Positions 14,631 to 61,257 of a DNA stretch of 64,000 nucleotides are shown piece by piece. A model generated the notes under the pieces. It worked only from the letters and a program-made list of their open reading frames with translations. It did not search any database and was not told the origin of the DNA. The position numbers and the translations under genes were made by a program. The first letter of the stretch is position 1; every line of letters begins with the position of its first letter. This DNA comes from an uncultured Candidatus Saccharibacteria bacterium (lineage in GTDB: Bacteria > Patescibacteriota > Minisyncoccia > Phycocordibacterales > Zambryskibacteraceae): assembly GCA_964582295.1 (NCBI GenBank), contig CAZOQP010000001.1, positions 9,588 to 73,587 of the forward strand. The letters are read 5' to 3'.

Positions 14631-14690
14631 CTCTAATTATTATACATCCTGCAAAGTCAATATCTCTTTCATTCTCCACAAGGGCGCTCA

Positions 14691-15038
14691 TTCAACAGCA
14701 TTTTTCAAATAGCAATCGTTCGGGAGTCCCACTAAAAGAGACCACTCCGGGGCGTTTGCCCAAGTCTTAGTCTCTTTTAGTGGGACTCCCTCACTCTAAA
14801 TAACTCCAATTTGAAAAATGCTGTTGGATTCGCTTTAAGTTCTAATATTTAAGGAGCGAAGATAATACCCTTTTTCACACACGCGGGAGGTGATTTTAGA
14901 AATCAAGGAGTTGAGTAGGAAAATGGGAGTGTTTGAGGAAGCCGAAGGCTGACGAGTTGCCCATTTTACGTTATGAGACGACTATGATTTCGTAAGCACC
15001 GGAGCGGCAGCTGTTTGAAAAAGGGTGTTATCTGAGTG
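14691..15038. repeat. composite structured intergenic repeat, copy 1 (long hairpin + ~165-nt conserved core)
   Basis: Shares the core TTTTTCACACACGCGGGAGGTG.TTTTAGAAATCAAGGAGTTGAGTAGGAAAATGGGAGTGTTTGAGG...GAGTTGCCCATTTT.CGTTATGAGACGACTATGATTTCGTAA.CACCGGAGCGGCAGCTGTTTGAAAAA with copies at 39196 and 43847. Preceded by a ~134-nt hairpin (14691-14824). Confidence 0.8.
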
Positions 15039-15043
15039 ACGTC

Positions 15044-19467: not shown

Positions 19468-20205
19468 TTATTTTTGAGCAGCTATCATATCTTTAAGTTT
19501 TTCAATTGAAAGAATAATTGCCTTTTTTCGATGGATGATTCTGTGACAATTTGAGCATACGGGAACAACATTTTTCAGTGCATCCATGATTGACTGTTCA
19601 AGATTATCTTCATACGCAAAAATTGGTTTTAGATGATGAATTTCAATGAATCCTTTACCAGCAAGGCCATAGAACTCTTCAAAATTGAAATTGCAAGCTT
19701 CGCAATAAATTTTATTGTGCTTTTTGAAATGTTCTTTCGCAATCTCAATTAACTTCTTCGATCGAAATCTTGTTTTTACATGGTTAGATCTAATGAAACC
19801 TTCTTCAATAATTAGGTTAACGAAATTTTGATCAATAACTTTTTCTCTATCATTTTCAGAAAAACCATTAGTTTCTATGAAGTCAAAGCCGTCAATGTTG
19901 TCAGAAATATATTTTTTACCTAAGTCAGTTATTTTAAGTAACCCTTTATTTTTACTAATTGTATCGTAGGTTGCTAAACCTTTTTTAAATATACTTCTTT
20001 GGGAAATACCTCTATGAGAAATTATATTTCTTACTTTTTGACTAAAGCGAGTATCCTTGCGATTAGCACTCAGCTCAAGATCTTTCCCTTCTGGTTTTAA
20101 AGTTTCTGTTAGATAAATAATCAGGTTTGATGTCAAAATTCCATCCTCTTTTGACGAAAGATAGACTAACGTGGGCATTATTAAATCACTCTCACTGTAA
20201 ATCAT
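19468..20205 (-). CDS. winged-helix + HNH endonuclease
   Basis: 245 aa. The C-terminus CEACNFNF...IEIHHLKP...VCSNCHRIIH is an HNH domain. The N-terminal region resembles the DpnI C-terminal winged helix. Confidence 0.75.
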   Translation of the reverse strand: MIYSESDLIMPTLVYLSSKEDGILTSNLIIYLTETLKPEGKDLELSANRKDTRFSQKVRNIISHRGISQRSIFKKGLATYDTISKNKGLLKITDLGKKYISDNIDGFDFIETNGFSENDREKVIDQNFVNLIIEEGFIRSNHVKTRFRSKKLIEIAKEHFKKHNKIYCEACNFNFEEFYGLAGKGFIEIHHLKPIFAYEDNLEQSIMDALKNVVPVCSNCHRIIHRKKAIILSIEKLKDMIAAQK

Positions 20206-20207
20206 AT

Positions 20208-21455
20208 TTAGAAGTTATAAATTATAAGATGTTCAACCTCCCTATCATTACGACCTTTTATATTGTACAAATAAGTTTTATCGAAAGTCTTAATTTTAAT
20301 ATTTAACCTGTTTTTATATAAACCTAAAATAAATGGGGTTTTTTTGATTATCAGGATAAATTTTGCTTTTGTTTTATATAAGCAATTAGCTAATCTTTTC
20401 TGATCATTCTTATCAAAAGATTGTTTTTCGTAATCACTAAAATCTGTATCGTATGGTGGATCTAGAAAGATAAAATCTTTTGGTGATAAATCTGTTTTTT
20501 TAATTATCTCTTCAAAATCTACATTTTTAATAGAAGTATTTTTAAAAATTCTTTCTATATTCTCACTTAATATATAGTCAACTTTTTTACGAAAATCTTT
20601 TGAATTATAAGCTATGCCTCCGTAAGGAATATTAAAATGACCCTTGGAATTAAACCTAAACATTGAACCATAGCAAAATTCTCTTACAAAATAATAATTT
20701 GCAATCTTTTTTGATAAAGAAGTCGGATATCTATTTCCATTAAAATTCATCACATCCCTAAAGTGCATGTAGAAACCACTTCTAAACGCTGTTTCAATAT
20801 TCATACGTAGATCTCTGTCATCTATATTCCCTCGCTTTATTTCGATTTCCTTCACCCTCCCAAGTTTAGATATTAGGTTAGAAATGATTTGTTTTAATAG
20901 GTTCTGGTCATCAAGACAAAAACTTTTATGGAATAGTCCATTAAATTTCTTCTCCTCAGCTTTTAGGTAATTATTTACAATATTTTTTAAATTCTCCTTG
21001 GTGATTTTGTCTTTTTTGAAATCAGAATATAATTTTATTAATTTGTCCTCAAAAATATCAATATACTTTGGTATTTTTTCCCAATTATCAACGTAATCAT
21101 AAATTTCTTTTTTAAATTCTTTTTTATTTTTTTCTCCTTTTATAAATTTATAGAAAAAAACTAATTCTTCGCAGATATCGCTTACCACTGCTTCTTTGGG
21201 CTGCAATCTCAAAAAAACTGCACCGCCACCAAAAAATGGTTCTATATATCTATCAAAATCTGGGATTAAATGTTGTATGTATTTAAACTCTTCTGACTTA
21301 CCCCCCGGCCATTTAATAAGAGGCCTGGCATACACGGACTGATTTCCCAAGATGTCACCGCCATTAAAAAACCTAGATTCTTGTAGTACACTCCGATGCT
21401 TTTTATATGATGACAACGTACTCTTTTTTTTAGACCCAAAAAGAATTATCCCCAT
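20208..21455 (-). CDS. Dam-family (D12 class) N6-adenine DNA methyltransferase
   Basis: 415 aa with KWPGGK...EPFFGGGAV (AdoMet binding) and DPPY catalytic motif (FLDPPYDTDF). Confidence 0.85.
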   Translation of the reverse strand: MGIILFGSKKKSTLSSYKKHRSVLQESRFFNGGDILGNQSVYARPLIKWPGGKSEEFKYIQHLIPDFDRYIEPFFGGGAVFLRLQPKEAVVSDICEELVFFYKFIKGEKNKKEFKKEIYDYVDNWEKIPKYIDIFEDKLIKLYSDFKKDKITKENLKNIVNNYLKAEEKKFNGLFHKSFCLDDQNLLKQIISNLISKLGRVKEIEIKRGNIDDRDLRMNIETAFRSGFYMHFRDVMNFNGNRYPTSLSKKIANYYFVREFCYGSMFRFNSKGHFNIPYGGIAYNSKDFRKKVDYILSENIERIFKNTSIKNVDFEEIIKKTDLSPKDFIFLDPPYDTDFSDYEKQSFDKNDQKRLANCLYKTKAKFILIIKKTPFILGLYKNRLNIKIKTFDKTYLYNIKGRNDREVEHLIIYNF

Positions 21456-21542
21456 AGTTTAATTATATATGAAACATATCCACAAAAAGTAAGGGCTGTG
21501 GATCAATTTTAAGAACATATACCCTAAAAGTTAAGGCGGTTT

Positions 21543-21995
21543 TTGGGAATTACAACCACATATCGACTCTATGTATACAACATTATTGGTCGTCGTGGGG
21601 ATATTGTTCCGATATTAGAACCTAAAATGCAGCTCAAATTCGAGAATCTTGATAAAAGTAAACAGAAATTAAGAGCTATCTACAAAGTTCACTCAGATTG
21701 GTTTGAGGTGCTTCAACCCAAGCCTACTAAGAGTAGGAATAATGTGGATTATTCCATCCAACTCAAAAGACTCCAGCTGCAACCTGGAAGATGGCCGCGT
21801 ATGAATAAAGATTACCTTTGTTCTCCCTATCAAAATCCGCTGAAGGGTTGTTACTGCCGAAGAGATGAGGACGCTGAGGAGTGCGAAGACGAGCCAATTC
21901 ATGAGTTAATTATAGCCCTCCTTGGAGATATTCGAGAAATTCACATGGCAGTAAAGATTAGCTGCTATAATATTAACTGTGACAACATCCCATGA
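21543..21995 (+). CDS. hypothetical Cys-rich protein
   Basis: 150-aa ORF in the AT-rich island, overlapping the start of the next gene by 4 nt. No recognised domain. Confidence 0.45.
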   Translation: MGITTTYRLYVYNIIGRRGDIVPILEPKMQLKFENLDKSKQKLRAIYKVHSDWFEVLQPKPTKSRNNVDYSIQLKRLQLQPGRWPRMNKDYLCSPYQNPLKGCYCRRDEDAEECEDEPIHELIIALLGDIREIHMAVKISCYNINCDNIP

Positions 21996-22627
21996 TCATG
22001 CATAAATTAAATTCAAAAAATAAATATGCATTCACGACTGATAAGCTAATCCGCCAAGAACTGAAGAAAACGATTGAAAAGAGATATAAGGACGCGCCTG
22101 TGAGAATTATCGAGGAGTTTGGTTTAGATGATCATGCTACGCGAATTGATATTGCTGTAGTAAATGGAATTTTACATGGTTATGAAATCAAGAGTGACTT
22201 GGATACACTAGGGAGGTTGCCGAAGCAAATGAGTTCTTATAACTCTATTTTCGACCAAATAACTTTGGTTGTTGGAACCCAGCATCTTTATGATGCTTTC
22301 AATATTGTGCCAGACCATTGGGGCATCATGGTCGCTAAGATAGATGGAAAAGGCTCTGTATATTTCAATCACATACGGACAGCCTCTGAGAATACCTCCC
22401 AAGAGAAACTTCCAATAGCAAGACTTCTGTGGAGAGATGAAGCCATCCATTTACTTGAAGATATTGGTTGCGCGCGAGGATATAAGAGTAAGTCAAAAGA
22501 TTTAATTCATAGCAGAATTTCTGATCTTCTTGATCTGAATACTCTCAAAGAAAGAGTGCGCGAGACGCTACTTCTTTCTAGGACTGATTGGAGAGCTGGG
22601 ACAGTACCAGTGCTATATGGTGACTAA
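21992..22627 (+). CDS. sce7726-family-like protein with PD-(D/E)XK nuclease motif
   Basis: 211 aa. RIDIAVVNGILHGYEIKSDLDTLGRLPKQ fits a D-x12-E-I-K restriction-endonuclease-like core. Family resemblance is from memory. Confidence 0.55.
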   Translation: MIMHKLNSKNKYAFTTDKLIRQELKKTIEKRYKDAPVRIIEEFGLDDHATRIDIAVVNGILHGYEIKSDLDTLGRLPKQMSSYNSIFDQITLVVGTQHLYDAFNIVPDHWGIMVAKIDGKGSVYFNHIRTASENTSQEKLPIARLLWRDEAIHLLEDIGCARGYKSKSKDLIHSRISDLLDLNTLKERVRETLLLSRTDWRAGTVPVLYGD

Positions 22628-23759
22628 TCCCTGCTGAGATCCAGTAGGTTGCTGCACCAGTTCCCTTACCTTTATTTTTTTCATCTTTCTTAACAAGTTC
22701 CATATAGGCAGGAAAATAATCTGACTTTTCTTTTATGCGCCTGTCGCCTTCGCTGAAAGCTTCCCCATAAAAGAAGGTACTATCATTCACGAGTTGTTGC
22801 GCATGTGCCAGATACTGATCGTTTCTCTTCTTCTCGCCTCTAAATATTATCCAGTTATTCTCGTGAGTGTATTTCAGCGTTGCAGACGCTTGCATGTATC
22901 GCAGTGCCTCGCTATGCATTGGATAGCGTATCGTATAATCTCCAAAAATTGGTTCTCGCACGAGTTTCCTGCCTTTTTTTGCAGCTAACCATAACTGCCA
23001 GTCATTGCGCGCCTCCATGCATGGACTATCTTCCACTTTGAGATGCCCGACATTCACAGGAAATGATCCGCTAGCAAAGATGACTGCTCTCCAAGCACTT
23101 AGGTTATGAATTTCCTGCACGTTTGAGAACAATTCTGCATATGACGCTTTTGTAGCATCATCGAGATATTTAATATCTAGGAGTAAATCTATTTGGTTTT
23201 CTTTGATGCCGGTCTCAACAACAAAGCTTCTCAATTTTGAGTTCAGATCATCAACCTTTTTCAAATCTGATAGCGTAACTCGTATGCAGATACCAACGAT
23301 AGTGCCTTTCTTGAACTGCTGCACAATTTCGTTCGCAACTTCCTTATCATCGTTTAAGTAGACTACAGGTCTTATATCTACTCCTTTTGCGTGACAAGTT
23401 TCAGCAACCTTTTGGACGCTCTCGACCTTGAGATTTGTTGTTCCAGCTCCATCGTGGATAAGATTGAAATCAATGGTTGCGCTTAGCTTGCCACGGCATT
23501 TTTCAATCTCATCCGGAATTTCCTTCAGACGAAAGTTTTTATACTTCTGAACCACCTCGTTATGTATCTCTTCTTCCGATTTACGAACTCTGGTCTTCTT
23601 ACCTTCAATAACAACAGTTTTATCCTGTGAAACACCGGGTAATACAATTTCAAGAACAGGGAGCAGATTGGCTCTATCTTTTTCAGGAACATTCGTCAAA
23701 GCCGCGATCTCAGCAGCTCGCCATTTAAGAATTGGGCTGTATAAGTAATTTTCTTTCAT
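22578..23759 (-). CDS. sce7725-family-like (beta-protein-like) partner protein
   Basis: 393 aa. N-terminus YSPILKWRAAEIAALTNV...LPVLEIV. Convergent with, and overlapping, the sce7726-like gene. Assignment tentative. Confidence 0.5.
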   Translation of the reverse strand: MKENYLYSPILKWRAAEIAALTNVPEKDRANLLPVLEIVLPGVSQDKTVVIEGKKTRVRKSEEEIHNEVVQKYKNFRLKEIPDEIEKCRGKLSATIDFNLIHDGAGTTNLKVESVQKVAETCHAKGVDIRPVVYLNDDKEVANEIVQQFKKGTIVGICIRVTLSDLKKVDDLNSKLRSFVVETGIKENQIDLLLDIKYLDDATKASYAELFSNVQEIHNLSAWRAVIFASGSFPVNVGHLKVEDSPCMEARNDWQLWLAAKKGRKLVREPIFGDYTIRYPMHSEALRYMQASATLKYTHENNWIIFRGEKKRNDQYLAHAQQLVNDSTFFYGEAFSEGDRRIKEKSDYFPAYMELVKKDEKNKGKGTGAATYWISAGISHHIALVLSQLSNQS

Positions 23760-23764
23760 ATCAG

Positions 23765-24997
23765 TTAAGCTGAATTAAATTCAGGAAAATACTTACGAAC
23801 TTTCGCTTCGCCAACTACTTTGCTCAGACGTTTGAAATCTCTTTCAAACCGCATTCTTCCCGCGATGATAGCAACATGTACACCCAATTCCTTTGCCAAA
23901 GATGTTGCGGCAGTCTTGGATGGAATTAGTTTTGCGGGGCTAATTTCCCATTTCTCCGTAGGAACAAGTGCTTCACCGGCCAAGCTATCTGCTTCGTGCT
24001 CCATTACTCCAATATCTCTACCTTTGATTTCATCGAGTTCGTCATAAAACAACTCACTATCGTTGTTCATGTGAAGTGCAACATGAGCCAACTCGTGCAT
24101 GAGCGTAAACCAGAAGTTATCTATACGGTCGTACCTAAGTGTCAGCCCTATTATAGGATTGTCTTTATTAAGGAAGATTGCCGCTCCGTCAAGTTTCGTT
24201 TTTTTAAACTGTTTTTCAATAACCAAAATAATTCCGTTATCTAGGAGAAACTTTTGCGCCAGAATCGGCGCACCGTCCTTAACACTTAGCTTGGCGAGAT
24301 CTTTCATGAAGTTGAGATTTACCGTGCTAGATTTATATTTCTTCTGTACTTTAACTTTTTGCGCTTTATAGAGGACGCAACCAAGCCACGCCGCGAGAGC
24401 TTGTTTATTTGTTGTTGGAGAAGTTCGGTAGTTTGTTTGTCTAAGCAAAGCACCAAAGTTCAGACTTGCATGATTAAGTGGTGAGAAAAATCTAGAGACT
24501 ACAGCCATTCGACTATCTTCTTTGGGACTGGTATCGTTGAGATACCCACGACTTTTTATTTCCTTGATGACGTCTAGGTGTATGTTTTCAAAGAGATCTT
24601 CTGTCTCTTCTGCAGGCTGTATAAGCACCTTAGCAGGTATACTTAGTTCTTTTTCAAGAGTACGGATCATTTTAAGAGTTAGAGGCGTTTTTCCAGAAAA
24701 TACTTCTGACACCTTACTCTTGCTGCCAATGTAGTGAACCATGTCAGAATCTTTGAGACCCATTTGTTCCATTCTGAACTTGATAGCCTCGACAGGATCA
24801 GGGAGAGAAGAAGGAAAATGGCTCTTTTCATAATCCTCAATCAAGGTGGCTAGCAGGTGGAGTTTGTCTGCTTCAGCAGAACCATTTTTTGGATTCATCA
24901 AAATTAGGCTCTCAAGTATTGCAAGAGCTTCCTTGTGATCTGCTTCTGTTTTAATTATTTTTATTTCCATAAAATTAAGTGATTTTCCACTTTTCAT
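23765..24997 (-). CDS. HigA-like XRE-HTH antitoxin fused to ImmA/IrrE-family Zn-metallopeptidase
   Basis: 410 aa with an N-terminal HTH and a C-terminal HEXXH (HELAHVALH) COG2856-type domain. Confidence 0.75.
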   Translation of the reverse strand: MKSGKSLNFMEIKIIKTEADHKEALAILESLILMNPKNGSAEADKLHLLATLIEDYEKSHFPSSLPDPVEAIKFRMEQMGLKDSDMVHYIGSKSKVSEVFSGKTPLTLKMIRTLEKELSIPAKVLIQPAEETEDLFENIHLDVIKEIKSRGYLNDTSPKEDSRMAVVSRFFSPLNHASLNFGALLRQTNYRTSPTTNKQALAAWLGCVLYKAQKVKVQKKYKSSTVNLNFMKDLAKLSVKDGAPILAQKFLLDNGIILVIEKQFKKTKLDGAAIFLNKDNPIIGLTLRYDRIDNFWFTLMHELAHVALHMNNDSELFYDELDEIKGRDIGVMEHEADSLAGEALVPTEKWEISPAKLIPSKTAATSLAKELGVHVAIIAGRMRFERDFKRLSKVVGEAKVRKYFPEFNSA

Positions 24998-25262
24998 ATT
25001 CAGTGTGAGTGCCGATTTTCTTGACCAAAACCATCTGATTTTCGTAATCGATAATCACCCACAGCCGGTACCTGTTGCCACATATGTTAAATATCGTGCT
25101 CTTGTTTCCCACGGAGTCTGCAGTCGGGAATTTCTGCTTCAGTTCGTGAGGGGTCTTCCATGAGGCATCCTCGATTTCGCTCTCCCAGCTTTCGATCTTG
25201 CTCTTTGCGTCTGTATGCTGCCGTTTGAAGTCGTGCAGGGGTTGCTTACCTAGTAATATCAT
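24975..25262 (-). CDS. higB: HigB-family type II toxin (RelE/ParE superfamily)
   Basis: 95 aa. IFNICGNRYRLWVIIDYENQMVLVKKIGTHTEYEK matches the HigB signature. Sits upstream of, and overlaps, the HTH gene as in higBA. Confidence 0.8.
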   Translation of the reverse strand: MILLGKQPLHDFKRQHTDAKSKIESWESEIEDASWKTPHELKQKFPTADSVGNKSTIFNICGNRYRLWVIIDYENQMVLVKKIGTHTEYEKWKIT

Positions 25263-25289
25263 GGCTTGTAACGATATTTCACATTTATA

Positions 25290-25310
25290 ATTGTTCCCGA
25301 TTCAGGAACA
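25290..25310. promoter_or_regulatory. palindrome TTGTTCC-cgattca-GGAACAA upstream of higB (candidate operator)
   Basis: 7-bp inverted repeat about 30 bp upstream of the higB start. Confidence 0.35.
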
Positions 25311-25448
25311 ATACTCTATGTGATAGACTAATGCAAGCGTTTCAAAAGAAGGAAATGGTTTAGGAGATCAGTCAATACCGTTCCCTTTTTAAGTTACTAA
25401 ACTATAAACGTAAGAACCGACATTTTATGCCGGTTCAAGCATTGAAAT

Positions 25449-25617
25449 CAGGCGGAGGGGATGGGAATTTCACTGCTCGCCCCTCGGCAAGCTCGGGGCT
25501 GCGCTTTAAAACCTGCGGGTTTTAAAGTTTCCACCACGGGAAACTCCCGTTTCCCGACCTCATCGAGTCTGAGGACTCTCAGAGTCTAAACGACCCTTCC
25601 CCGGTTCAAATCCCATC
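25449..25617. repeat. hairpin-rich element built from inverted partial copies of the tRNA-Ser 3' end
   Basis: GGCGGAGGGGATGGGAATTT (5' end) and GGTTCAAATCCCATCCCC (3' end) are inverted and direct near-copies of the tRNA-Ser T-arm/acceptor. Internal perfect hairpins: CTTTAAAACC-tgcg-GGTTTTAAAG, GGGAAAC-tccc-GTTTCCC, GAGTCTGAGGACTC. Confidence 0.6.
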
Positions 25618-25663
25618 CCCATAAACAATTTTAAAATATCAAAAGATATTGAAAATTGTCTTG

Positions 25664-25752
25664 CGGAGGGGATGGGATTTGAACCCATGCGGGATGTATT
25701 AGACCCCGACGGTTTAGCAAACCGTTCCGTTAGACCGCTCCGGCACCCCTCC
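25664..25752 (-). tRNA. tRNA-Ser (anticodon GCU), class II with long variable arm, CCA not encoded
   Basis: The reverse complement reads GGAGGGGTGCCGGAGCGGTCTAACGGAACGGTTTGCTAAACCGT CGGGGTCTAATACATCCCGCATGGGTTCAAATCCCATCCCCTCCG. Anticodon loop UUGCUAA. Confidence 0.85.
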
Positions 25753-25828
25753 ATTGCTCCGCCAATTTATCACATTTTCCCCTTCTTTTCTCCTCAATTT
25801 CCATTCCAATCCCTTTCACCTCTCCCAC

Positions 25829-25876
25829 CCCACAATCTATTCCAGTATTCTCAAGAATACTGGAATAGATTGTGGG
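25829..25876. promoter_or_regulatory. 48-bp palindrome (22-bp perfect stems, loop TCAA) upstream of the ArsR-family regulator
   Basis: CCACAATCTATTCCAGTATTC-tcaa-GAATACTGGAATAGATTGTGG, about 55 bp upstream of the regulator start. Confidence 0.5.
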
Positions 25877-28759: not shown

Positions 28760-28782
28760 TATAAGGTTTCTGTGCATAAAAT

Positions 28783-28812
28783 AAACCCGCCAGCCAGCTG
28801 GCGGGTTTGTTT
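28783..28812. terminator. rho-independent terminator AAACCCGCCAGC-ca-GCTGGCGGGTTT + T-run
   Basis: Perfect 12-bp stem followed by GTTTTAT. A near-identical hairpin recurs at 63140. Confidence 0.75.
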
Positions 28813-30854
28813 TATGCCTGATGCTCTATATCTTTTTTCTTTTTCAAAGGGATACCGTGAGCCACAAGCATTTTTTCAAATTCCTCCCTTTCAATGGTTT
28901 CTTCATCCATTAATCGCTTTGCTACAGCGGCAAGGAGCTTGCTGTGTTTTTTGAGGACTTTTTCCGCCTGCTTCAGGGCATCTCTCATTATTGCGTCCAC
29001 TTCGGAATCAACAAGAGAAGCAACTCTTTCAGAATATTCCTCTTCCACACCGCGGCCCAAAAGCATTTTGCTCGGCTCAAGCGCCTGCGCACCGACTTTT
29101 TCAGACATTCCGTATTTAGTGACCATGTCGCGTGCGATAGCCGACGACACCTGAAGATCGTTCGATGGGCCGGTGGTAATATCGCCGAATATCATTTTCT
29201 CCGCCACGTATCCGCCAAGGCCCGTCGCGATGTCATCCAAAAATTCCCGGCGAGACTGAAGCCTCCTGTCTTCAAGCGGAAGCTTCAGTGTGTAGCCGCC
29301 TGCATGGCCGCGCGCGATTATGGATATCTTATGTACTGGATCGGCATACAAGAGAACAGATGAAACAATAGCGTGCCCCGCTTCGTGATAAGCGGTTATC
29401 TCTTTTTCTTTTTTGGAAAGAAGATGGCTCTTGCGTTCTGGCCCAAGCATCACTTTTTCAATTGAGCGAATGAGATCGTACTGGGAAACTTTGGAGCGGT
29501 CTTCACGCGCCGCAAGAATAGCGGCTTCGTTCATAAGAGAGTAAAGATCAGCGCCTGAAAATCCGGGGGTGCGCTCTGCCACCACTCCCAAATTCACATC
29601 TTCCGCGAAAGGCTTGGTGCGGGAATGTATTTTTAAAATGTCTTCGCGGTCATGCCTGTCCGGCAGATCAATGATGACGCGCCTGTCGAAGCGGCCTGGG
29701 CGGAGAAGTGCAGGGTCAAGAACATCGGGCCTATTGGTAGCCGCCATGACTATCACTTTCTCATTCGGCTCAAAGCCGTCCATTTCAACCAGGATCTGAT
29801 TCAGGGTCTGCTCGCGCTCGTCGTTGCCACCTCCGAGCCCCTGCCCCCTTGCGCGCCCCACCGCATCTATTTCATCTACGAAAACAATAGCCGGCGCCGC
29901 GCGCTTGGCCATCTGGAAAAGGTCACGCACGCGAGAAGCACCAACACCCACGAACATCTCCACAAATTCAGAACCGGATATGGAAAAGAAGGCCACATTG
30001 GCTTCCCCAGCCACGGCGCGGGCCAAAAGAGTTTTACCTGTGCCGGGCGCACCCATCAATATCACACCTTTGGGAATTTGCGCGCCGATATCCAGGAATT
30101 TTTTAGGATGGCGCAGGAAATCCACGATCTCCGAAAGCTCCTGCTTGGCTTCCTTAGCTCCCGCCACGTCCTTGAAAAGCACACGTTGCTTGGTGTCGTT
30201 GGGCGCGATTATTTTGGGCTTTGACTGACCGAAAGTGAATGCCTGCATACCACCCGCTTTTGCCTGTCGAGACAAGTACCAAAAAAAGAAAACTATGAAA
30301 ATGATAGGCAATGCAATAGGCAAAATATTCGCGAACCAAAACCAAAAGCCAGACTCCCCTTTTATTTCGAGTTCAACCGCCAAAAGTTTTTCTTTTGAGA
30401 CGCCGTAATCCGCAAGGGTTTCAAGAAGCGCTGCGCTCGGCTCCTTGGTGGTCACTTTTGATGTGCCATCTGCGAATTGCGCCGTTACTTCATTGCCTTT
30501 AACTGAAACAGAAATGACATTTCCGGTTTCTATCTCGCGCGCAAGCTCGGAGAGCGAAATTTTTTGGAGAGTGGCCGAAGATGAAAAAACTCCGGAGATG
30601 GCCATGAGCAAAAGGAAGATGACGACGATGGAAAGTACGTTCGCCCAGAAGCCCCCCTTTGGAATTTTGAAATTCTTTTTTATATTTTTCGGAAAATCCT
30701 TTCGCACCATCAGGCGTATTTTTTTTCTGGAGCCTGGAGGCATCTTGGACGGACTGTTTTCACCGTCCCTGTCATTAATCTTCTCGTTGTCGGCTGGCGC
30801 ACCTTTCTGTTTTTCTTTTTTGTTCGGAGGCATAGGTATTGATACTATACCCAT
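28812..30854 (-). CDS. ftsH: ATP-dependent zinc metalloprotease FtsH
   Basis: 680 aa with AAA+ Walker [12 protein letters not shown] and HEAGH zinc motif. Lys-rich N-terminal extension and 2 TM segments. Confidence 0.95.
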
Positions 30855-38849: not shown

Positions 38850-39194
38850 ATGACAAGAGTTAAAAAAGGAGTAAATGCATTAAAGACCCGTCGAAAGATC
38901 CTCAAACAGGCCAAAGGATATCGTTTTGGCCGCTCCAAAAAAGAAAGAGCTGCCTACGAAGCCCTCCTTCATGCTGGCTCTTATGCTTTTGCTCACCGAC
39001 GCGACAAAAAGAATGATTTCAGACAACTATGGATCATTCGCCTTTCCGCAGCCCTTCGTCCTCACAATATTTCATATAGCGTGTTCATAAATAAACTCAA
39101 GAAAGGTGGGGTAACTTTAGACAGAAAGGTACTTTCACAAATTGCCGCTGAATCTCCTGAAACTTTTAATTCGATTGTAGAAAAAGTTAAATAA
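38850..39194 (+). CDS. rplT: 50S ribosomal protein L20
   Basis: 114 aa (MTRVKKGVNALKTRRKILKQAKGYRFGR). Confidence 0.92.
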   Translation: MTRVKKGVNALKTRRKILKQAKGYRFGRSKKERAAYEALLHAGSYAFAHRRDKKNDFRQLWIIRLSAALRPHNISYSVFINKLKKGGVTLDRKVLSQIAAESPETFNSIVEKVK

Positions 39195-39195
39195 A

Positions 39196-39612
39196 ACGTC
39201 GCTCGGGGTATTCTCTGAAAATGGAGGCACGCACTCAGACACAAAAAGAGACCACTCCGGGGCGTGCCCCGGGTCTTAGTCTCTTTTCGTGTCTGAGTGC
39301 TTTACTCAAAAAACATTTTCAGAGAATACCCCTCGCTCCAAAATCAAAATCCACGTAGGACAGTCCTACGTGGATTTGGTAGCGGAGGGCATGACTCGCT
39401 CCTTAAGAAATAAAACTTAGAGCGAACCCAACAGCATTTTTCACACACGCGGGAGGTGGTTTTAGAAATCAAGGAGTTGAGTAGGAAAATGGGAGTGTTT
39501 GAGGAGGCGGATTGTGCCGACGAGTTGCCCATTTTGCGTTATGAGACGACTATGATTTCGTAAACACCGAAGCGGCAGCTGTTTGAAAAATGCTGTTGAG
39601 TGAGCGGTATTT
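39196..39612. repeat. composite structured intergenic repeat, copy 2 (with nested hairpin insert flanked by TCGCTC direct repeats)
   Basis: Same conserved core as copies 1 and 3 (39429-39598). The flanking helix CAACAGCATTTTT / AAAAATGCTGTTG covaries relative to the other copies. Extra hairpin AAATCCACGTAGGAC-ag-TCCTACGTGGATTT between CTCGCTC repeats. Confidence 0.8.
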
Positions 39613-41021
39613 TATAAATGATATTCTTTTCCTTTTTCTAGAACCTGGGGAGGAATGTCTAAAGTATCTTTTATGCGCTGGGCGAGGAAGCTTGCAGATT
39701 TTAGTTCTCCCATACCTATAAAAACTTTTTTGGGATGAGGAGTTAATTTTGATACAAATTCCACAAGATGGTCAGAATCTTTGTGGCCTGAAAAACCGTG
39801 AATAGAAATTATCCTGGCGCGCACTTTTATTTTCCCTGTTCCTATCATCACTTCCTTTGCCCCCTCTTCAAGCATTCTTCCCACCGTGCCCGCTGCCTGA
39901 TAGCCCATAAGAAGCACTGTGGTGTCCGGGTCCGGAAGATAACGTGCTTCGTGGGAAAGGATGCGGCCTCCCGAAGACATTCCGGAGCCCGCAAGAATTA
40001 TTTTCGGCCCGAGCACTTTTTCTATTGTGTGTGAATCGGAGACACGCGCTGTTTCTTTGAGAGTTGCGAAACGGAAAAGGCCGTCCTTTTCATTCATGCT
40101 TTGAAGCGCCCCTTCATTAAAAAGCTCGGTCATTTTTTCATATATATGCGTCACCCGGATAGCGAGAGGAGAATCTAAAAACACAGGCACGCGCGGCAGA
40201 AGGCTGGCATCCCACATTCCGTTCAAAAGCGAAAGAACTATCTGGGTACGCTCAATTGAAAAACACGGAATAAGAATAGTGCCGCCATTCTCCACGGCTT
40301 TTTCAATAGTATGTCTGAAATTGGCTTCTCTTTCCTCTATACCTTCATGGTTCCGGTCACCATATACGCTCTCCATAAGCAGAAAATCTGGACCCGGCGG
40401 GATTTCGGTATCCCGCAGAAGGAGTGACGGGGAATTACCCAGGTCTCCTGTTGCTAAAAGAGAACACTCCCCTGTAGGTGTTTTCATGTTTATCCAGTAC
40501 ATAGCTGAACCCAAGATGTGGCCAGCGTCGTACGGAACTACGGAAACGCCGGGAGCTATCTCCGTACTTTCATGATAAGAAACCGTTTGCCACAGGGAGA
40601 AAGCGCGCACAAGATGAGCTTCATTGAAAGCGGGCGGGACATTCGCTATGCGGCTTTTTTCGGCCTCAATATGCGCCGCATCCTGAAGCGATACTTCGGC
40701 AATAGCTTTGGTCTCACGGGTTGAATAAATAGTGCCGGTAAAACCTTCTTTCACAAGCTGGCCTATGCGGCCGATATGATCCAAATGCGCGTGAGTAATA
40801 AGAAGAGCACGAATTTCTTTTGCATCATATGCAAATTGCTTTCTGTTCTCCCTTTCATTCTCAGGTGTTCCCTGATGAAGACCACAATCAATAAGAATTT
40901 TTACGGGTGCACCTATTCCATCCGCAGGCGGTATACGGATCTCAAAATTAGCACCTGTAACGGTGCCGGCGCCGCCCCATGGAGAAAGTACGATGCCGGA
41001 ATTTTCTTCAGGTTTCGTCAT
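39612..41021 (-). CDS. MBL-fold metallo-hydrolase, beta-CASP ribonuclease family (RNase J/CPSF-like)
   Basis: 469 aa with HAHLDH motif, beta-CASP and RNA-specificity domains. Confidence 0.8.
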   Translation of the reverse strand: MTKPEENSGIVLSPWGGAGTVTGANFEIRIPPADGIGAPVKILIDCGLHQGTPENERENRKQFAYDAKEIRALLITHAHLDHIGRIGQLVKEGFTGTIYSTRETKAIAEVSLQDAAHIEAEKSRIANVPPAFNEAHLVRAFSLWQTVSYHESTEIAPGVSVVPYDAGHILGSAMYWINMKTPTGECSLLATGDLGNSPSLLLRDTEIPPGPDFLLMESVYGDRNHEGIEEREANFRHTIEKAVENGGTILIPCFSIERTQIVLSLLNGMWDASLLPRVPVFLDSPLAIRVTHIYEKMTELFNEGALQSMNEKDGLFRFATLKETARVSDSHTIEKVLGPKIILAGSGMSSGGRILSHEARYLPDPDTTVLLMGYQAAGTVGRMLEEGAKEVMIGTGKIKVRARIISIHGFSGHKDSDHLVEFVSKLTPHPKKVFIGMGELKSASFLAQRIKDTLDIPPQVLEKGKEYHL

Positions 41022-41374: not shown

Positions 41375-41420
41375 GAGTTTATTCTATTATCGCACACCAT
41401 TCAAACAGAACGAAAGAATT

Positions 41421-41457
41421 CAGCCATATGGCTGAATTCTTTCGTAGGGCCGCGGCA
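41421..41457. repeat. 37-bp perfect palindrome AACGAAAGAATTCAGCCATATGGCTGAATTCTTTCGT
   Basis: Seen directly, in the 364-bp intergenic region between ndk and the membrane protein gene. Confidence 0.5.
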
Positions 41458-43846: not shown

Positions 43847-44190
43847 AAAATGTCGCTCGGGGTGATGACGAAAAGAGTACGCATAAAAATCTGCTGATTT
43901 TTTGCTCACCCTCGCGCCGTCGCGCTGCACAGCCTCTTTTCGTCATCACCCCTCGCTCCTTAAGAGTTGGAACTTAGAGCGAAAAGTGCAGTATTTTTCA
44001 CACACGCGAGAGGTGGTTTTAGAAATCAAGGAGTTGAGTAGGAAAACGGGAGTGTTTGAGCAACACCCTAACATACGATATATCGTATGTTAGGGTGTTG
44101 CGAGTTGCCCATTTTCCGTTACGAGACGACTATGATTTCGTAACCACCGGAGCGGCAGCTGTTTGAAAAATACTGCACTTTGAGCGGTCA
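43847..44190. repeat. composite structured intergenic repeat, copy 3 (apex replaced by a 42-bp perfect palindrome)
   Basis: Core at 43986-44178. The flanking helix GTGCAGTATTTTT / AAAAATACTGCAC covaries. The apex carries CAACACCCTAACATACGATATATCGTATGTTAGGGTGTTG. Upstream hairpin GGGGTGATGACGAAAAGAG...CTCTTTTCGTCATCACCCC. Confidence 0.8.
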
Positions 44191-51826: not shown

Positions 51827-52714
51827 TCAACGGGTAGGTCTATTCCTAAAAACGGAGATTTTCTCCTTCAATTTATACGCATTCCCATGTCTCAATAGCC
51901 CCAGATAAGACTGCACCGTTTCCGCCTTAACATCACCATTTTCGAGATTTTTCATCATCCTTCGCTTGGTAGTGGTTCTCAATACGCGATAATCATGAAA
52001 ATGCACCCAGCCCAGGAAATCCACACCTGAAGCCAAGGTTTTAATGAATACCTTGTCCGGATGAAGAGTGAGTTTAAGCTTCTCTCCTAGATAACATACG
52101 ATATATCGTATGTTATCTAGGAGGTTTCCTTTGTCATGGTGGAGTATTACGAAATCATCTGCATAGCGTATGTAGTGTTTTACTTTGAGCGTGTGCTTCA
52201 TGTATTGATCAAACTCGTTCATGTAGACATTTACCAGAAGCTGGGAGGTGAGGTTCCCGAGGGGCAGTCCAATGCCAGAAGCAGTGCTTGAGAAGCTTCC
52301 TATGACCTTTTGGAGAAGCCACATGGTGTCCTCATCTTTTATATGCTTGTTCAGGATTTCAATGAGTATTGAATGATCAATTGATGCGAAAAACTTGCGC
52401 ACATCGCATTTCAATATAAAACATGTGCGTGTCCTGTTGTTTGAAACTTTATATGAAAATCTTTTAAATCTCTCCATCGCCTTGTGGGTGCCTTTAAAGT
52501 TCCGGCAGGAATAGGAATCGTGTATGAATCTTTTGTCAAAGTACGGATACAAAACCCTGTATATGGCGTGGTGGAGCAGTCTGTCCCTCACGCTCGCCTT
52601 GTGGATATTCCTCGGCTTGGGGTCCGAAATGTTGAAAGCTGAATATCCTCCATGTGTATATGTTTTTCCGGCCAAATCCTGATGCAAAGAGAGTATGTTG
52701 TCCATGAGCCGCAA
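51827..52714 (-). CDS. diversity-generating retroelement reverse transcriptase
   Basis: 295 aa. RT motifs 1-7 with IRYADDFVIL (motif 5) and the DGR-specific motif 4 variant LGNLTSQ (I/LGxxxSQ, in place of QGxxxSP). No maturase or endonuclease domain. Confidence 0.85.
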   Translation of the reverse strand: MRLMDNILSLHQDLAGKTYTHGGYSAFNISDPKPRNIHKASVRDRLLHHAIYRVLYPYFDKRFIHDSYSCRNFKGTHKAMERFKRFSYKVSNNRTRTCFILKCDVRKFFASIDHSILIEILNKHIKDEDTMWLLQKVIGSFSSTASGIGLPLGNLTSQLLVNVYMNEFDQYMKHTLKVKHYIRYADDFVILHHDKGNLLDNIRYIVCYLGEKLKLTLHPDKVFIKTLASGVDFLGWVHFHDYRVLRTTTKRRMMKNLENGDVKAETVQSYLGLLRHGNAYKLKEKISVFRNRPTR

Positions 52715-52826
52715 GCCAAACTCCTGAACATCCTTTCTGTTCCGCTTGCCTCTTAAAAATTCCCTCCACGCTTCAAGGAGATTGTCTAAAGAAATGATAT
52801 CGTTATAGGTATGAGAAAACTCCCCT

Positions 52827-53213
52827 TTGAAGTCCCCCCCCCCCGCAGATTTCAGTAGTCATCTTATTCCTGTAATCATAAAGCTTAAAGACCTATATGG
52901 CCTATGGCAAGGATATTTGGCACACTTTCCGAAGTCAAAACGTTTTACACTCGGTTCCAAGCTTGATGACCTATTTTTGAGCGCCATTGAAAATTGCTTT
53001 TTAGCTAGTTACTCTTCAGGTGAAGAAAAGAACACATATGTTGACCGCTCAATCTCACGAGTGGATCTCATAAAATTATTACTTCAACTTGCATGGGAAA
53101 CTAGAGTCCTTGATACGAACAAATATTCTCATTTATCCGAAAATCTATCAGAGGTTGGGAAAATGCTTGGTGGATGGAAAAGACAACTGACAAGAAAAAC
53201 TCCCCCGCGGTGA
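52827..53213 (+). CDS. Avd-like four-helix-bundle protein (IVS-encoded protein family, DGR accessory variability determinant homolog)
   Basis: 128 aa with a TTG start. The sequence pattern ...FPKSKRFTLGSKLDDLFLSAIENCFLASYS...RVDLIKLLLQLAWETRVLD... is typical of four-helix-bundle/IVS proteins. It sits 23 bp from the TR but on the opposite strand to RT, TR and VR. Confidence 0.7.
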   Translation: MKSPPPADFSSHLIPVIIKLKDLYGLWQGYLAHFPKSKRFTLGSKLDDLFLSAIENCFLASYSSGEEKNTYVDRSISRVDLIKLLLQLAWETRVLDTNKYSHLSENLSEVGKMLGGWKRQLTRKTPPR

Positions 53214-53236
53214 TACGGGGGAGAACCATAATAGTG

Positions 53237-53365
53237 GCGCACGGCGAGGAACCGGCAACGCTCATCCCACTCGTTGTCGTTCCAGTTCAGATTGAGCTTG
53301 CGCTTAGAATCGTTCACGTCGAGATACGGAACGTTGCGATTGTCGTCCAACTGCGAGACGGAGCC
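53237..53365 (-). repeat. DGR template repeat (TR), 129 bp
   Basis: Near-identical to 53706-53834. All 14 mismatches have A in this copy (minus-strand sense) and G or T in the other. Confidence 0.85.
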
Positions 53366-53612
53366 TTGTACGACAAACCATCCATACCACCACCCATTGA
53401 ATAATCCCCGGGTTGAATCTTATTCGTGACCTTTGTGTCACATAGTTTGTCGCACCAACTTTCTCTGGTTTTTACCAAACCCGGAAACTCTCTTTCGGAA
53501 GCCGTGGCCGCCGAAACTCTCATTACTCGGGCGTGCGAACAAGTTACCCAAAGCCGTAACCGTAGGTTTTTCACTTGTCTCAATTATTGTATAGAAAAAA
53601 TTTACATATGAA

Positions 53613-53642
53613 AACTCCGTCGGACAGCTGTCCGACGGAGTT
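53613..53642 (-). terminator. 30-bp perfect palindrome AACTCCGTCGGACAG|CTGTCCGACGGAGTT + T-rich tract, 3' of the VR gene
   Basis: About 60 nt downstream of the VR end. It could also be the hairpin/cruciform element that follows DGR VRs (IMH-associated). Confidence 0.6.
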
Positions 53643-53700
53643 GTTTCCAAAGCCCAAGTACCAAGGCCAAAAACGAAGCCAAAGCTCAAGGGCCCAAGTA

Positions 53701-54309
53701 CTACTTGCGCACGGCGAGGAACCGGCAACGCTCACCCCACTCGTCGTCGCTCCAGTCCAGACTGAGCCCGCGCTCAGAATCGTCCACGTCGAGAAACGGA
53801 ACGTCGCGAAAGTCGCCCAACTGCGAGACGGAGCCGAGAGCGATAATGGGAAATCTCCGTTGAACCTCCGGAAATGTTGCTCCGAAAGCCAGAAGTTCCT
53901 CCATGGTAGCCGGGCGCATTCCCATCTTGTCGATTTCTTTCTTCACTTCATCGGTCGCAATAACACGATTTAAGTGAATGAGTTCGACGGTGGTCTCCAC
54001 CTTACCCTTACCCTTTACAGGGAAGCGCTCAGTGGTAATATCATCGTTTTTCCAATCGTACCGGCCGGATGCGATCATCTCCGCGAGCGTCATGGAATAA
54101 TCCACGACGACTTTGAGAACGAGCGGGCCCAGGCCGAGGAAATCCCGAAGCTCCCCGCGGGGTTTGTTGAAACCCGTCGCGAGAGCTTCCAGAAAATCCG
54201 GCAGGATGCCGTCGGAGACCGCTACCGCCAACTGTTCCTTGCTCACCCCTTTCTGGTCAATGAGGGTAAGGATGTGTCCCGCCTGCGGCAGTGTTGCGTT
54301 GGTGCTCAT
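53701..54309 (-). CDS. DGR variable (target) protein, VR at C-terminus
   Basis: 202 aa with no signal peptide or TM helix. The last ~43 codons are the VR (...VSQLGDFRDVPFLDVDDSERGLSLDWSDDEWGERCRFLAVRK). The TR encodes the Asn-rich template version (DDNRNVPYLDVNDSKRKLNLNWNDNEWDERCRFLAVR). Confidence 0.8.
   Translation of the reverse strand: MSTNATLPQAGHILTLIDQKGVSKEQLAVAVSDGILPDFLEALATGFNKPRGELRDFLGLGPLVLKVVVDYSMTLAEMIASGRYDWKNDDITTERFPVKGKGKVETTVELIHLNRVIATDEVKKEIDKMGMRPATMEELLAFGATFPEVQRRFPIIALGSVSQLGDFRDVPFLDVDDSERGLSLDWSDDEWGERCRFLAVRK
53706..53834 (-). repeat. DGR variable repeat (VR)
   Basis: 129 bp matching the TR except at 14 TR-adenine positions (11 A-to-G, 3 A-to-T). Confidence 0.85.
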
Positions 54310-54520: not shown

Positions 54521-55227
54521 TGTTTTTTACATAGGCAAGACCTATGTATAATTAAGATATGGCAATTAGAGAAATCTCCTTTGCTCCTGGATGCTATTAT
54601 CACATTTACAATCGAGGTAATAGCAAGCAGAAAATATTTCTTGATAAGAACGACTATCACCGTTTCATTAAGCTCCTTTATATTTCAAACTCACGGCAAA
54701 ACTTTGCCATCAGAAACTTTTCCAAGAAAAATATATACGACGTTGATCGCGGACAGAAACTGGTATCCATGGGAGCTTTTTGTTTAATGTCAAATCATTT
54801 CCACATTCTTTTATGCCAGCCGGAGAATGGCGACATCAGCAAGTTCATGCAAAAATTGAGCACATCTTACTCGATGTATTTTAATAAGAAATATGAACGG
54901 ACTGGCGGACTGTTTGAGAGTAAGTTCAAATCTGAATATGTAGAGACCGATCGTCATCTGAAATACCTATTTTCTTACATACACCTCAATCCATTAAAGA
55001 TCGTTGACCCGAAATGGAGAGAAAAAAGTGGGAATGATTTATCGGGGTCAATGAAATTCTTGGAAAATTACAATTTTTCTAGCTTTGATGAGTACATTGG
55101 GAAATCCCGTATTGAACAAGTTATTTTGGATAGACAGGATTTTCCAGAGTATTTCCCAGCCGAAAAAATATTTTTAGAAGAAATTACTGAATGGATTAAC
55201 TTTACATAGGCAAGACCTATGTAAGTC
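54521..55227 (+). mobile_element. IS200/IS605-family Y1 (HUH) transposase gene of RAYT/TnpA-REP type, flanked by identical subterminal hairpins
   Basis: CDS 54559..55209 (216 aa) with HIYNRGN...LMSNHFHILL (HUH) and a downstream Tyr region (YSMYFNKKYERTGGLFESKFKS). Both ends carry TTACATAGG-caaga-CCTATGTAA (54521-54547 and 55201-55227). Confidence 0.75.
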
Positions 55228-59471: not shown

Positions 59472-59645
59472 GGTAATTATTGGGAATAAAAGATAATAAG
59501 TTGAAGAGTACCGCGCTTTCCCTGTCGCGAGAGCGTTGACAGAGAGAACGTGCTACAGCGCCATAACGAAAAAAGCCGAAACAGGCGGTAGGGAATATCT
59601 TACGGGAGAGCCACGGAAAGTCAACCCCGAACAGACCTATAGAGC

Positions 59646-59681
59646 AAAAACCCTGTCCGCCAGCTGGCGGACAGGGTTTTT
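59646..59681. terminator. bidirectional rho-independent terminator AAAAACCCTGTCCGCCAGCTGGCGGACAGGGTTTTT
   Basis: Perfect palindrome with A/T runs on both sides, between the MscS-like gene and tuf. Confidence 0.75.
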
Positions 59682-59711
59682 GCTTTCCGGATACCAATAC
59701 CGGCTTAAGTC

Positions 59712-61243: not shown

Positions 61244-61257
61244 TAATGCAATATCTC

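Follow-up and report, generated by a model that had tools for sequence, protein, structure and literature searches.

Bracketed hairpin modules between rplT and a beta-CASP gene of a Paceibacteria-type genome form composites that resemble REP/BIME/REPIN mosaics

In the Candidate Phyla Radiation, where genomes are tiny, repeat elements are considered rare. Among the hairpin repeats of other bacteria, ERIC, Correia/NEMIS, RUP and YPAL are MITEs (miniature transposable elements with inverted repeats) that fold into long RNA or DNA hairpins. HUH/Y1 enzymes of the REP-RAYT and IS200/IS605 systems act at a hairpin foot, beside a short fixed sequence, and leave no staggered-cut duplication, and the Y1 transposases of the IS200/IS605 type make no target duplications. 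Repetitive extragenic palindromic (REP) sequences, which also occur as bacterial interspersed mosaic elements (BIMEs) and as inverted doublets (REPINs), are defined by a conserved tetranucleotide GT[A/G]G at the 5' terminus and a palindrome immediately after it (PMC3686654). In this work the gap between rplT, the gene for ribosomal protein L20, and a gene for a beta-CASP/RMMBL protein was analyzed in a stretch of 64,000 nt (contig CAZOQP010000001.1; "the window"), where a stack of hairpin-forming repeat modules lies 3' of rplT. The window belongs to a Parcubacteria/Paceibacteria-type genome, the best non-identical matches of the beta-CASP protein showing 60–65% identity and some being labelled Minisyncoccia/Parcubacteria. 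With a probability of roughly 45%, the gap is read here as a composite of REP/BIME/REPIN-like modular single-strand hairpin elements, and not as nested transposon footprints in one element.

The genes rplT (38850-39194, plus strand) and beta-CASP (39612-41021, minus strand) converge, and repeat DNA fills the 417-nt gap between their stop codons. The same layout was found in all three composites of the window: a bracket, hairpin A, a second bracket, an AT-rich spacer hairpin of the pattern TCGCTCC-TTAAG...CTTA-GAGCGA, a long imperfect hairpin (the rod, 175–200 nt) and a terminal GAGCGG or GAGTGA. Each composite has at its right end, 4–6 nt away, the stop codon of a gene read on the minus strand: pilM for copy 1, the beta-CASP gene for copy 2 and secY for copy 3. 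Copies 1 and 3 are located inside minus-strand operons (pilM-pilN-like-pilO and secY-adk-map), and copy 2 alone lies between convergent genes. The parts are as follows.

14685..15039: composite copy 1, between pilM and a pilN-like open reading frame (ORF)
14685-14689: CGCTC of copy 1
14690-14829: module A1
14830-14859: spacer of copy 1
14860-15033: rod of copy 1, with its apical domain at 14916-14971
15034-15039: GAGTGA of copy 1
39199..39204, plus strand: bracket "a" of copy 2, TCGCTC, which is the 3' bracket GAGCGA of module A2 on the minus strand; its partner in the minimum-free-energy fold is GAGCGG at 39602
39205..39332, minus strand: hairpin module A2 of copy 2, 128 nt, with 19-bp perfect outer arms and a 29-nt inner arm pair
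39333..39339, plus strand: bracket TCGCTCC of copy 2, first copy of a 7-nt direct repeat
39340..39395, minus strand: insert of 56 nt with hairpin B (39347-39377), the only copy in the window
39396..39425: spacer hairpin P2 of copy 2, TCGCTCC-TTAAG...CTTA-GAGCGA, two 5' brackets of head-to-head modules
39426..39600, plus strand: rod module of copy 2, closing stem CAACAGCATTTTTCA / TGAAAAATGCTGTTG
39482..39539, plus strand: apical domain of the copy 2 rod, loop GGG-AGTGTTTGA-[hairpin]-GAGTTG-CCC, 58.4 bits with covariance model R1
39602..39607, plus strand: 3' bracket GAGCGG of the copy 2 rod; the beta-CASP gene on the minus strand has its stop codon (39612-39614) 4 nt away
43853..44187: composite copy 3, between secY and adk
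43853-43858: TCGCTC of copy 3
43859-43952: module A3
43953-43982: spacer of copy 3
43983-44181: rod of copy 3, with a perfect apical palindrome of 42 nt at 44060-44101
44182-44187: GAGCGG of copy 3

An earlier note on this DNA had described TCGCTC as occurring three times in copy 2, bracketing first a long hairpin and then an extra perfect one. The hexamer was located on the plus strand at 39199-39204, 39333-39338 and 39396-39401, with its complement GAGCGA at 39420-39425, and both hairpins were found with perfect arms. The outer arms of the long hairpin, GGGGTATTCTCTGAAAATG and CATTTTCAGAGAATACCCC (39205-39223 / 39314-39332), are 100% complementary over 19 nt and enclose an inner arm pair of 29 nt (39224-39252 / 39279-39307). 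The arms of hairpin B (39347-39361 / 39363-39377) are 100% complementary over 15 nt and are separated by a single base, not by the two-base loop (ag) that the note had given. The chance expectation of such arms is zero. Copy 2 exceeds copies 1 and 3 by exactly 63 bases, i.e. the 56-nt insert and the second TCGCTCC. At the equivalent site of copy 3 (43853-43959) the arrangement TCGCTC-GGGG[hairpin]CCCC-TCGCTCC was found with no second hairpin, as the note had said, and hairpin B is missing from copy 1 as well. No second copy of hairpin B or of the insert was detected in the window or in any fetched relative. The tip AAAAGAGACCACTCCGGGGCGT..GTCTTAGTCTCTTTT is conserved between module A2 and copy 1. 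The possibility that hairpin A is a degenerate rod was discarded, its score with model R1 being just 6.9 bits.

The recurrence of TCGCTC, for which the note had named base composition as a possible explanation, was compared with chance. The hexamer is mildly enriched window-wide (48 occurrences against 34.8 expected, with 48 reached in 3/100 shuffles), but it is found four times on both strands within 417 nt, against ~0.23 expected by arithmetic from the window-wide rate, and it coincides exactly with the module boundaries in all three copies.

The same boundary was observed in other genomes. On the better-folding strand the modules read 5'-CTTA(G)AGCGA-[hairpin]-GAGCGR-3', with one fixed orientation relative to the bracket. 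Bracketed hairpins of this form were present in the window genome and in at least five related Paceibacteria (L011, L013, L017, L068 and L070), sometimes in tandem and usually head-to-head around a spacer. The A3-type core was found in six places (window copy 3, two in L011, one in L013 and two in L068) and had the same orientation relative to GAGCGA...GAGCG in all six; between species the module is flipped relative to the operon, and the bracket flips along with it. L068 carries a tandem pair of small bracketed hairpins at 9440-9600, the rod of L017 starts with CTTTAGAGCGAGCC and ends with GGCGAGCGAC, and that of L070 starts with CTTAGGCGAGC. The slots can also be swapped, as in L011 an A3 module follows GGAACTTAGAACGAA, in the slot held by the rod in the window. 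A scan for bracketed stable hairpins gave 6 strict matches in 175 kb and 0 in 10 shuffles. The longer bracket CTTA(G)AGCGA(G) is conserved across species and in Rheinheimera, where the type-A rods have GTTGGAGCGAGCC as their 5' foot and TTCGAGCGG as their 3' foot.

The hexamer flanks unrelated hairpins at the same position in paralogues, and it flanks the rod on the opposite strand too. Since it brackets unrelated hairpins both in paralogues and in other species, TCGCTC is best regarded as a conserved module bracket and does not look like a fresh duplication. It follows from this rule that the spacer hairpin consists merely of the 5' brackets of two slots placed head-to-head, and that the three plus-strand TCGCTC of copy 2 are the brackets of the tandem minus-strand modules B and A2. 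Because the brackets are inverted, a closing helix TCGCTC:GAGCGG is also predicted; in the minimum-free-energy folds of all three composites this pairing, between the first TCGCTC and the 3' GAGCGG, closes a multiway junction, and the TCGCTCC beside TTAAG pairs with GAGCGA. The serial insertion of hairpins at a duplicated CGCTC-like target, as proposed in the earlier note, stands only in part: the hexamer does bracket serial modules, also beyond the window, but a staggered-cut target duplication is not supported.

The rod core is nearly invariant across the three window copies, while the closing stem and the apical hairpin differ yet stay paired. Its internal loop, GGG-AGUGUUUGA-[variable hairpin]-GAGUUG-CCC, is invariant and rich in G.A and U.U juxtapositions. 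Model R1 detected exactly three rods in the window, at 53–59 bits, the next match reaching 11.5 bits. When the pattern GGGAGTGTTTGAG-N(10-40)-CGAGTTGCCC was searched for in one-genome-per-species contigs, 51 matches were obtained, against ~0.5 expected by arithmetic. The carriers included several Rheinheimera species, Chromatiaceae, Ketobacter, Rubrivivax-like and other Betaproteobacteria metagenome-assembled genomes (MAGs) and Oxalobacteraceae among the Proteobacteria, and Saccharibacteria, Yanofskybacteria and Paceibacterota outside them; four matches with no flanking helices look like chance. Rheinheimera texasensis DSM 17496, R. mesophila IITR-13 and R. tilapiae KCTC 23315 are carriers that can be cultivated. 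Both helices flanking the loop covary: over 37 distinct sequences, 86.8% of the cells were paired against 66.6% in shuffles, double-change cells numbered 102 against 37 in shuffles, and all slid controls collapsed.

In Rheinheimera-type loci, R1 matches form minus/plus head-to-head pairs 215–270 nt apart, and a minus/plus pair is also present in the secY-adk gap of L005. At least 14 near-identical rods were counted in two betaproteobacterial MAGs, and in MAGs of this class rods often sit at contig ends, as many of these 14 do. Some inverted rod pairs of Rheinheimera are 1.0–1.6 kb apart and enclose orphan ORFs of 126–257 aa, and single rods abut AbiH and DUF2971 genes, which suggests that rods delimit small accessory or defence gene islets in this genus. 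The genes between the widely spaced pairs were considered as possible transposases and discarded, being orphan ORFs with no Pfam transposase domain. The rod-pair and rod-gene loci of Rheinheimera are the following.

L014, 3697-5276
L054, 5327-7035
L040, 4518-5665
L024, 6711-8000
L020, 2782-3886

No family match was returned by Rfam 15 (gathering and E-value thresholds) for the window composites and rods together with 15 rod-bearing loci, and the sub-threshold matches were to generic long-hairpin microRNA-precursor models only. The loop pattern had 0 matches in viral contigs, two rods had no blastn match in plasmids, and an exact rod 20-mer had 0 matches in genome contigs; its three metagenome contig matches lay in ordinary sequence and were set aside as chance. 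A literature search on the loop sequence gave unrelated primer matches only, and one on repeats in this bacterial group gave nothing relevant apart from TIGR-Tas. Likenesses to the K-turn, hammerhead, SRP, 6S, attC, ssoA and Frpo were considered and set aside, as they do not fit the invariant loop. A small ORF in the rod (ATG after AAGGAG) was also rejected, as its length is 24 aa in copy 2 but 9 aa in copy 1, the codon in place of ATG is ACG in copy 3, and a stop follows after 5 codons in L005. In a separate observation, a group II intron of a betaproteobacterial MAG (L055 84-256 and 1847-1910; Rfam group-II-D1D4-3, 101.8 bits) ends directly upstream of a rod's apical part, having taken the place of most of the 5' arm of that rod; hairpin-seeking introns may use rods as targets.

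Synteny is kept in the relatives, where secY-adk-map-(ndk)-beta-CASP and rplT-rpmI-infC converge. Between beta-CASP and rplT there are only 2, 10, 2 and 5 nt in L011, L013, L067 and L068, with no element, and in the P0002 clade (L005-L010) there are 450–470 nt, which include a homologous rod. In L070 the beta-CASP stop codon is directly followed by a rod of opposite orientation, within which the contig ends. Thus, four relatives have an empty junction, two lineages an occupied one and a third lineage one that is occupied in inverted orientation. All three window composites have positional counterparts in the P0002-clade genome, a sister species: pilM/pilN-like (L017), rplT/beta-CASP and secY/adk (L005). 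Rods of the same genome resemble each other more closely than do rods at orthologous sites. Strains with two haplotypes were distinguished: in the first, both rods carry a single GAGT and a perfect apical palindrome of 30 nt; in the second, GAGTGAGT is present in both rods and the palindrome in the secY-adk rod only. The apical hairpin of one rod therefore differs between strains, while the state of the GAGT indel is common to both paralogous rods within a strain, i.e. there is concerted evolution between paralogues together with apical-hairpin polymorphism. The comparison for insert polymorphism that the earlier note had called for thus gave a positive outcome, in the apical hairpins and at the rplT/beta-CASP junction. 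Additionally, a Logan contig of the source sample (L004) breaks off 27 nt beyond the stop codon of rplT, and L070 (5404-5453) ends 50 nt into the rod. As short-read assemblies break inside the composite, draft assemblies probably under-estimate the copy number of the repeat.

A preference for one strand was also observed. Of 45 distinct rods, 43 fold better on the motif strand than on the complementary one (mean difference 13.4 kcal/mol, more G.U pairs), and folding z-scores of -5 to -6 were obtained. A1, A2, A3 and two modules of L011 fold better on the opposite strand, where the bracket reads GAGCGA; for A2 the values are -86.6 kcal/mol on the minus strand and -80.0 kcal/mol on the plus strand.

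Compared with the described systems, REP/BIME/REPIN is the closest known kind. The likeness consists of intergenic palindromic modules in which a palindrome follows a conserved short 5' motif, doublets inverted about a spacer as in REPINs, mosaics of alternating orientation as in BIMEs, and persistence at orthologous sites, near stop codons and homogenised within genomes. The REPIN-type inverted arrangement was found in the head-to-head slots of all three window composites as well as in the minus/plus R1 pairs of the Rheinheimera-type loci and L005. The locus departs from this kind in its motif, its enzyme gene and its palindrome. The window modules start with CTTA-GAGCGA or CTTAAG-GAGCGA and not with GT[AG]G, and carry a second copy of the motif after the hairpin; Rheinheimera rods start with GTTG-GAGCGAGCC, with a few GTAG variants, which is analogous but not identical to the REP motif. 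The Rheinheimera 5' bracket GTTGGAGCGAGC agrees at 11 of 12 positions with the Pseudomonas REP classes PF8/PF18, GT[GA]GGAGCGAGC (PMC3686654), a lead and not a proof. Moreover, the modules measure 60–200 nt instead of 20–40 nt, their outer stems vary from copy to copy, unlike the palindromes of a REP class, which are uniform, and the invariant internal loop of the rod spans phyla. REPs number tens to hundreds per genome; the sequence covered here contains three composites in 64 kb and none in ~9 kb more. The Y1 gene of the window is not flanked by modules, in contrast to a single-copy REP-associated tyrosine transposase (RAYT) gene lying within its own REPs.

That Y1 gene, which the earlier note had suggested as the cognate RAYT, is an ORF of 216 aa (54559-55209) encoding a Y1/HUH protein (Pfam Y1_Tnp, 1.4e-10) that scores 46 bits with NCBIfam REP_Tyr_transpos, under the model cut-off of 80. 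It is bounded by two direct plus-strand copies of TACATAGGCAAGACCTATGTA (54528 and 55203), absent elsewhere in the window and unrelated to the modules; the second copy overlaps the Y1 stop codon, and the whole, 54528-55223, directly upstream of rplB, looks like a self-contained IS200-like unit. By tblastn, no homologue of this ORF was found in the rod-bearing loci L001-L064. It was therefore rejected as the enzyme of the modules. Neither TnpB, the other partner that the note had in mind, nor any further transposase or recombinase was detected among the 28 window ORFs scanned against Pfam.

Like the IS200/IS605 elements and their ORF-less derivatives (PATEs), the modules are one-strand hairpins, strand- and orientation-specific and adjoining a short fixed sequence, and the window holds the IS200-like unit just described. 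They differ in not sharing the hairpin of that resident unit, in having one hairpin instead of distinct left-end and right-end hairpins, in lacking TnpB or omega-RNA and in carrying an identical bracket on both sides. PATEs carry subterminal hairpins that match those of a resident IS200/IS605 copy and insert, with no duplication, 3' of a fixed tetra- or pentanucleotide; the modules have their fixed motif on either side. By analogy, an IS200/IS605-like mode of action is possible for the modules. With ERIC, Correia/NEMIS, RUP and YPAL they share the form of 100–200 nt imperfect palindromes in intergenic or operonic positions, co-transcribed with their neighbours, and size variants arising by internal insertions at fixed sites. 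They differ in lacking conserved terminal inverted repeats, a TA-type duplication and a found autonomous partner, and in the modules it is the interior that is conserved and not the termini. The ends of the 56-nt insert are not complementary, the closing stems of the rods vary and no transposase with matching ends was found among the window ORFs scanned. The 7-nt TCGCTCC that flanks the insert has the form of a target duplication, but the same motif brackets different hairpins elsewhere, so an element-borne or site-specific bracket would look no different.

Integron attC sites also conserve stem structure over sequence, act as a folded single strand with one preferred, lie directly after stop codons and are targets of group II introns, one of which abuts the rod in L055. 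By contrast, the feet of the modules are GAGCGA/GAGCGG with no RYYYAAC/GTTRRRY core sites, the flanking genes are core genes (rplT, beta-CASP, secY, adk and pilM) and not cassettes, and the interior is strongly conserved. The TIGR arrays of guide RNAs for Tas/Nop-domain proteins (PMC12045711) likewise occur in the Candidate Phyla Radiation and have variable palindromic stems around short conserved motifs, whereas the modules are dispersed, far larger and not in a tandem array, with no box C/D motifs or 8–12-nt spacer pairs. No Nop-domain gene was present among the window ORFs scanned. A TIGR-Tas link was discarded on these grounds.

The mechanism proposed for REP/BIME/REPIN-like modules can be outlined as follows. 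The left slot, on the minus strand, holds hairpin A, joined in copy 2 by the tandem hairpin B, and the right slot, on the plus strand, holds the rod. The modules would act in single-stranded form, and the TCGCTC bracket would be the site where they are joined, exchanged or cleaved as hairpins by some enzyme, working like the HUH/Y1 enzymes of the REP-RAYT and IS200/IS605 systems. Gene conversion would homogenise the module cores while the locus-specific outer stems drift with their pairing kept, which would explain conserved cores with different but perfect stems. Hairpin B may have been kept in copy 2 because it is a terminator of the converging beta-CASP gene: on the minus strand its 14 pairs are followed by TGATTTTGG, which reads as a predicted intrinsic terminator, and it is present only in the copy flanked by convergent genes.

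Several observations weigh against this reading. Hairpin B is single-copy, so its mobility is only putative, no additional composite was present in ~9 kb of sequence added to the left of the window, beyond the three in 64 kb, and no cognate enzyme was found, the sole Y1/HUH gene of the window having unrelated flanking hairpins. The bracket is not universal, as GAGCG is absent from the rods of the betaproteobacterial MAGs and from the type-B rods of Rheinheimera and is inverted in Ketobacter. The strand preference of the A modules is small (3–9 kcal/mol), and the strand data fit single-stranded DNA and RNA equally; divergent transcription from the AT-rich spacer would give the same rule, and a single structured RNA would be equally expected to fold into junctions closed by TCGCTC:GAGCGG. 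Positional orthologues of the three composites in a species with ~65% identity in the neighbouring protein fit old residents better than active transposition, and the current activity that the earlier note had envisaged is not supported.

A broader proposal is possible, although it must be held more tentatively: the rod and its companions would constitute an undescribed, horizontally spread class of bracketed single-strand hairpin elements with the unit NTTR-GAGCGA-[hairpin]-GAGCGR, in which the loop of 9 + 6 unpaired nt (AGUGUUUGA / GAGUUG) is recognised by a widespread protein and modules are swapped cassette-like at the bracket. Such a protein may be a new hairpin-specific recombinase or nuclease, or a host RNA-binding factor. 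As the proteobacterial rods flank small accessory and defence genes (AbiH, DUF2971 and orphan ORFs), they could delimit miniature mobile gene cassettes.

Among the alternatives, the best placed, though unlikely, is one large structured RNA of 345–417 nt, either a 3'-untranslated or intergenic element or a stand-alone non-coding RNA. TCGCTC/GAGCGR would then be two helices of a four- or five-way junction bearing hairpin A, the spacer hairpin and the rod, and B would be a lineage-specific expansion or a terminator. The folds of all three composites, the strong covariation of the rod, its invariant loop rich in G.A and U.U, which is typical of RNA motifs, and the folding z-scores agree with such an RNA, and the one-strand G.U excess supports a single-stranded functional form. 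It is opposed by the A modules and the rod being optimised on opposite strands, by modules that change slot and flip with their bracket between species, and by the rods of Proteobacteria, which occur alone, in inverted pairs and in many near-identical copies. Moreover, in composites 1 and 3 the better-folding strand of the rod is antisense to the surrounding minus-strand operon, no sigma-70-like promoter was predicted at the composites (the promoters of the host group itself have not been identified), and no Rfam family was matched.

Marginally less probable again is an origin with no dedicated mobility, by replication slippage, template switching in quasi-palindromes and ectopic gene conversion, the hexamer being part of the duplicated sequence. 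Short direct repeats such as TCGCTCC are classical end-points of slippage, paralogous rods evolve in concert within strains, and 18 perfect hairpins with arms of at least 12 bp were found in the window against 0 in shuffles; a 40-nt perfect palindrome even lies in a reverse-transcriptase ORF, with no change of length relative to the Bordetella enzyme, and has 24 nt in common with the apical palindrome of copy 3. Such an origin leaves unexplained the constant orientation that modules of different species have with respect to the bracket, the occupancy of the same junction in opposite orientation (L070), the dispersed near-identical copies of Proteobacteria and the loop that is invariant across phyla. 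Finally, small hairpin MITEs inserted by staggered cuts that duplicate a CGCTC-like target, and mobilised by the RAYT at 54559 or an IS200/IS605 transposase, are very improbable, since despite the perfect 7-nt repeat TCGCTCC around an insert absent from copies 1 and 3 and a Y1 gene 15 kb away, the insert has no terminal inverted repeats, an off-centre palindrome (flanks of 7 nt and 18 nt) and no second copy in the window or fetched relatives, the hexamer brackets unrelated hairpins in copies 2 and 3 and in other species and was thus not created per insertion, Y1 transposases of this type make no target duplications, and the hairpins of the Y1 gene itself are unrelated.

Other features were noted in the window. 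A complete diversity-generating retroelement (DGR) occupies 51827-54309; it and the Y1 transposase form an insertion in the S10 operon, between rplB and the ribosomal-protein genes that come next. Its parts are listed below.

51827-52714, minus strand: DGR reverse transcriptase, best solved relative PDB 8ub7 (8.4e-36), which we take to be the Bordetella enzyme bRT
52827-53213, plus strand: Avd-like protein (Pfam bAvd)
53229-53376: template repeat
53699-53846: variable repeat
53701-54309, minus strand: target ORF, 202 aa

The differences between template and variable repeat fall at T on the plus strand (A on the coding strand) in 17 of 22 cases. The 40-nt perfect palindrome of the reverse-transcriptase ORF (52084-52123) encodes LLDNIRYIVCYLGE, and the 24-nt core that it has in common with the apical palindrome of copy 3 (44060-44101) is TAACATACGATATATCGTATGTTA; the apical palindrome of the L005 clade has the same centre, TACGAT..ATCGTA. 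Hairpin or cruciform elements associated with DGRs usually lie downstream of the variable repeat, and a 30-nt perfect palindrome, AACTCCGTCGGACAG/CTGTCCGACGGAGTT, was found at 53613-53642, ~57 nt downstream of it. Another of 36 nt, ACGAAAGAATTCAGCCAT/ATGGCTGAATTCTTTCGT with the centre CAT/ATG (41410-41445), lies in the gap between ndk and the beta-CASP gene, which is unusually long (~370–510 nt) in all fetched relatives and may hold an unannotated small gene or RNA. Perfect palindromes of 38–44 nt with (nearly) no loop were also detected at 291-328, 28774-28817, 59643-59684, 61203-61244 and 63132-63173; the core CCCGCCAGC/GCTGGCGGG is common to most of them, preceded by A-runs and followed by T-runs, and by this composition they look like bidirectional terminators. 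Moreover, a tRNA gene (25664-25752) is accompanied by an accessory island (19468-25876) with an HNH endonuclease, a D12 adenine methyltransferase, a "Beta protein" and an IrrE-like M78 peptidase. Part of the 3' half of the tRNA recurs in inverted form at 25579-25620, and a perfect hairpin of 23 bp lies at 25829-25876; taken together, these features suggest that the island is an integrated element.

Returning to the composites, units of 350–420 nt are carried inside core operons (secY-adk and pilM-pilN) and directly after rplT, starting 4–9 nt from stop codons, and judging by this position they would have to affect essential genes at the level of mRNA processing, termination or translation. The bracket rule provides a testable grammar for the assembly of hairpin mosaics. 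The loop of the rod, absent from Rfam and identical from Paceibacteria to the cultivable Rheinheimera, offers a handle for finding the protein that would recognise it, and such a recogniser would bear on the old question of the purpose and spread of REP-like sequences.

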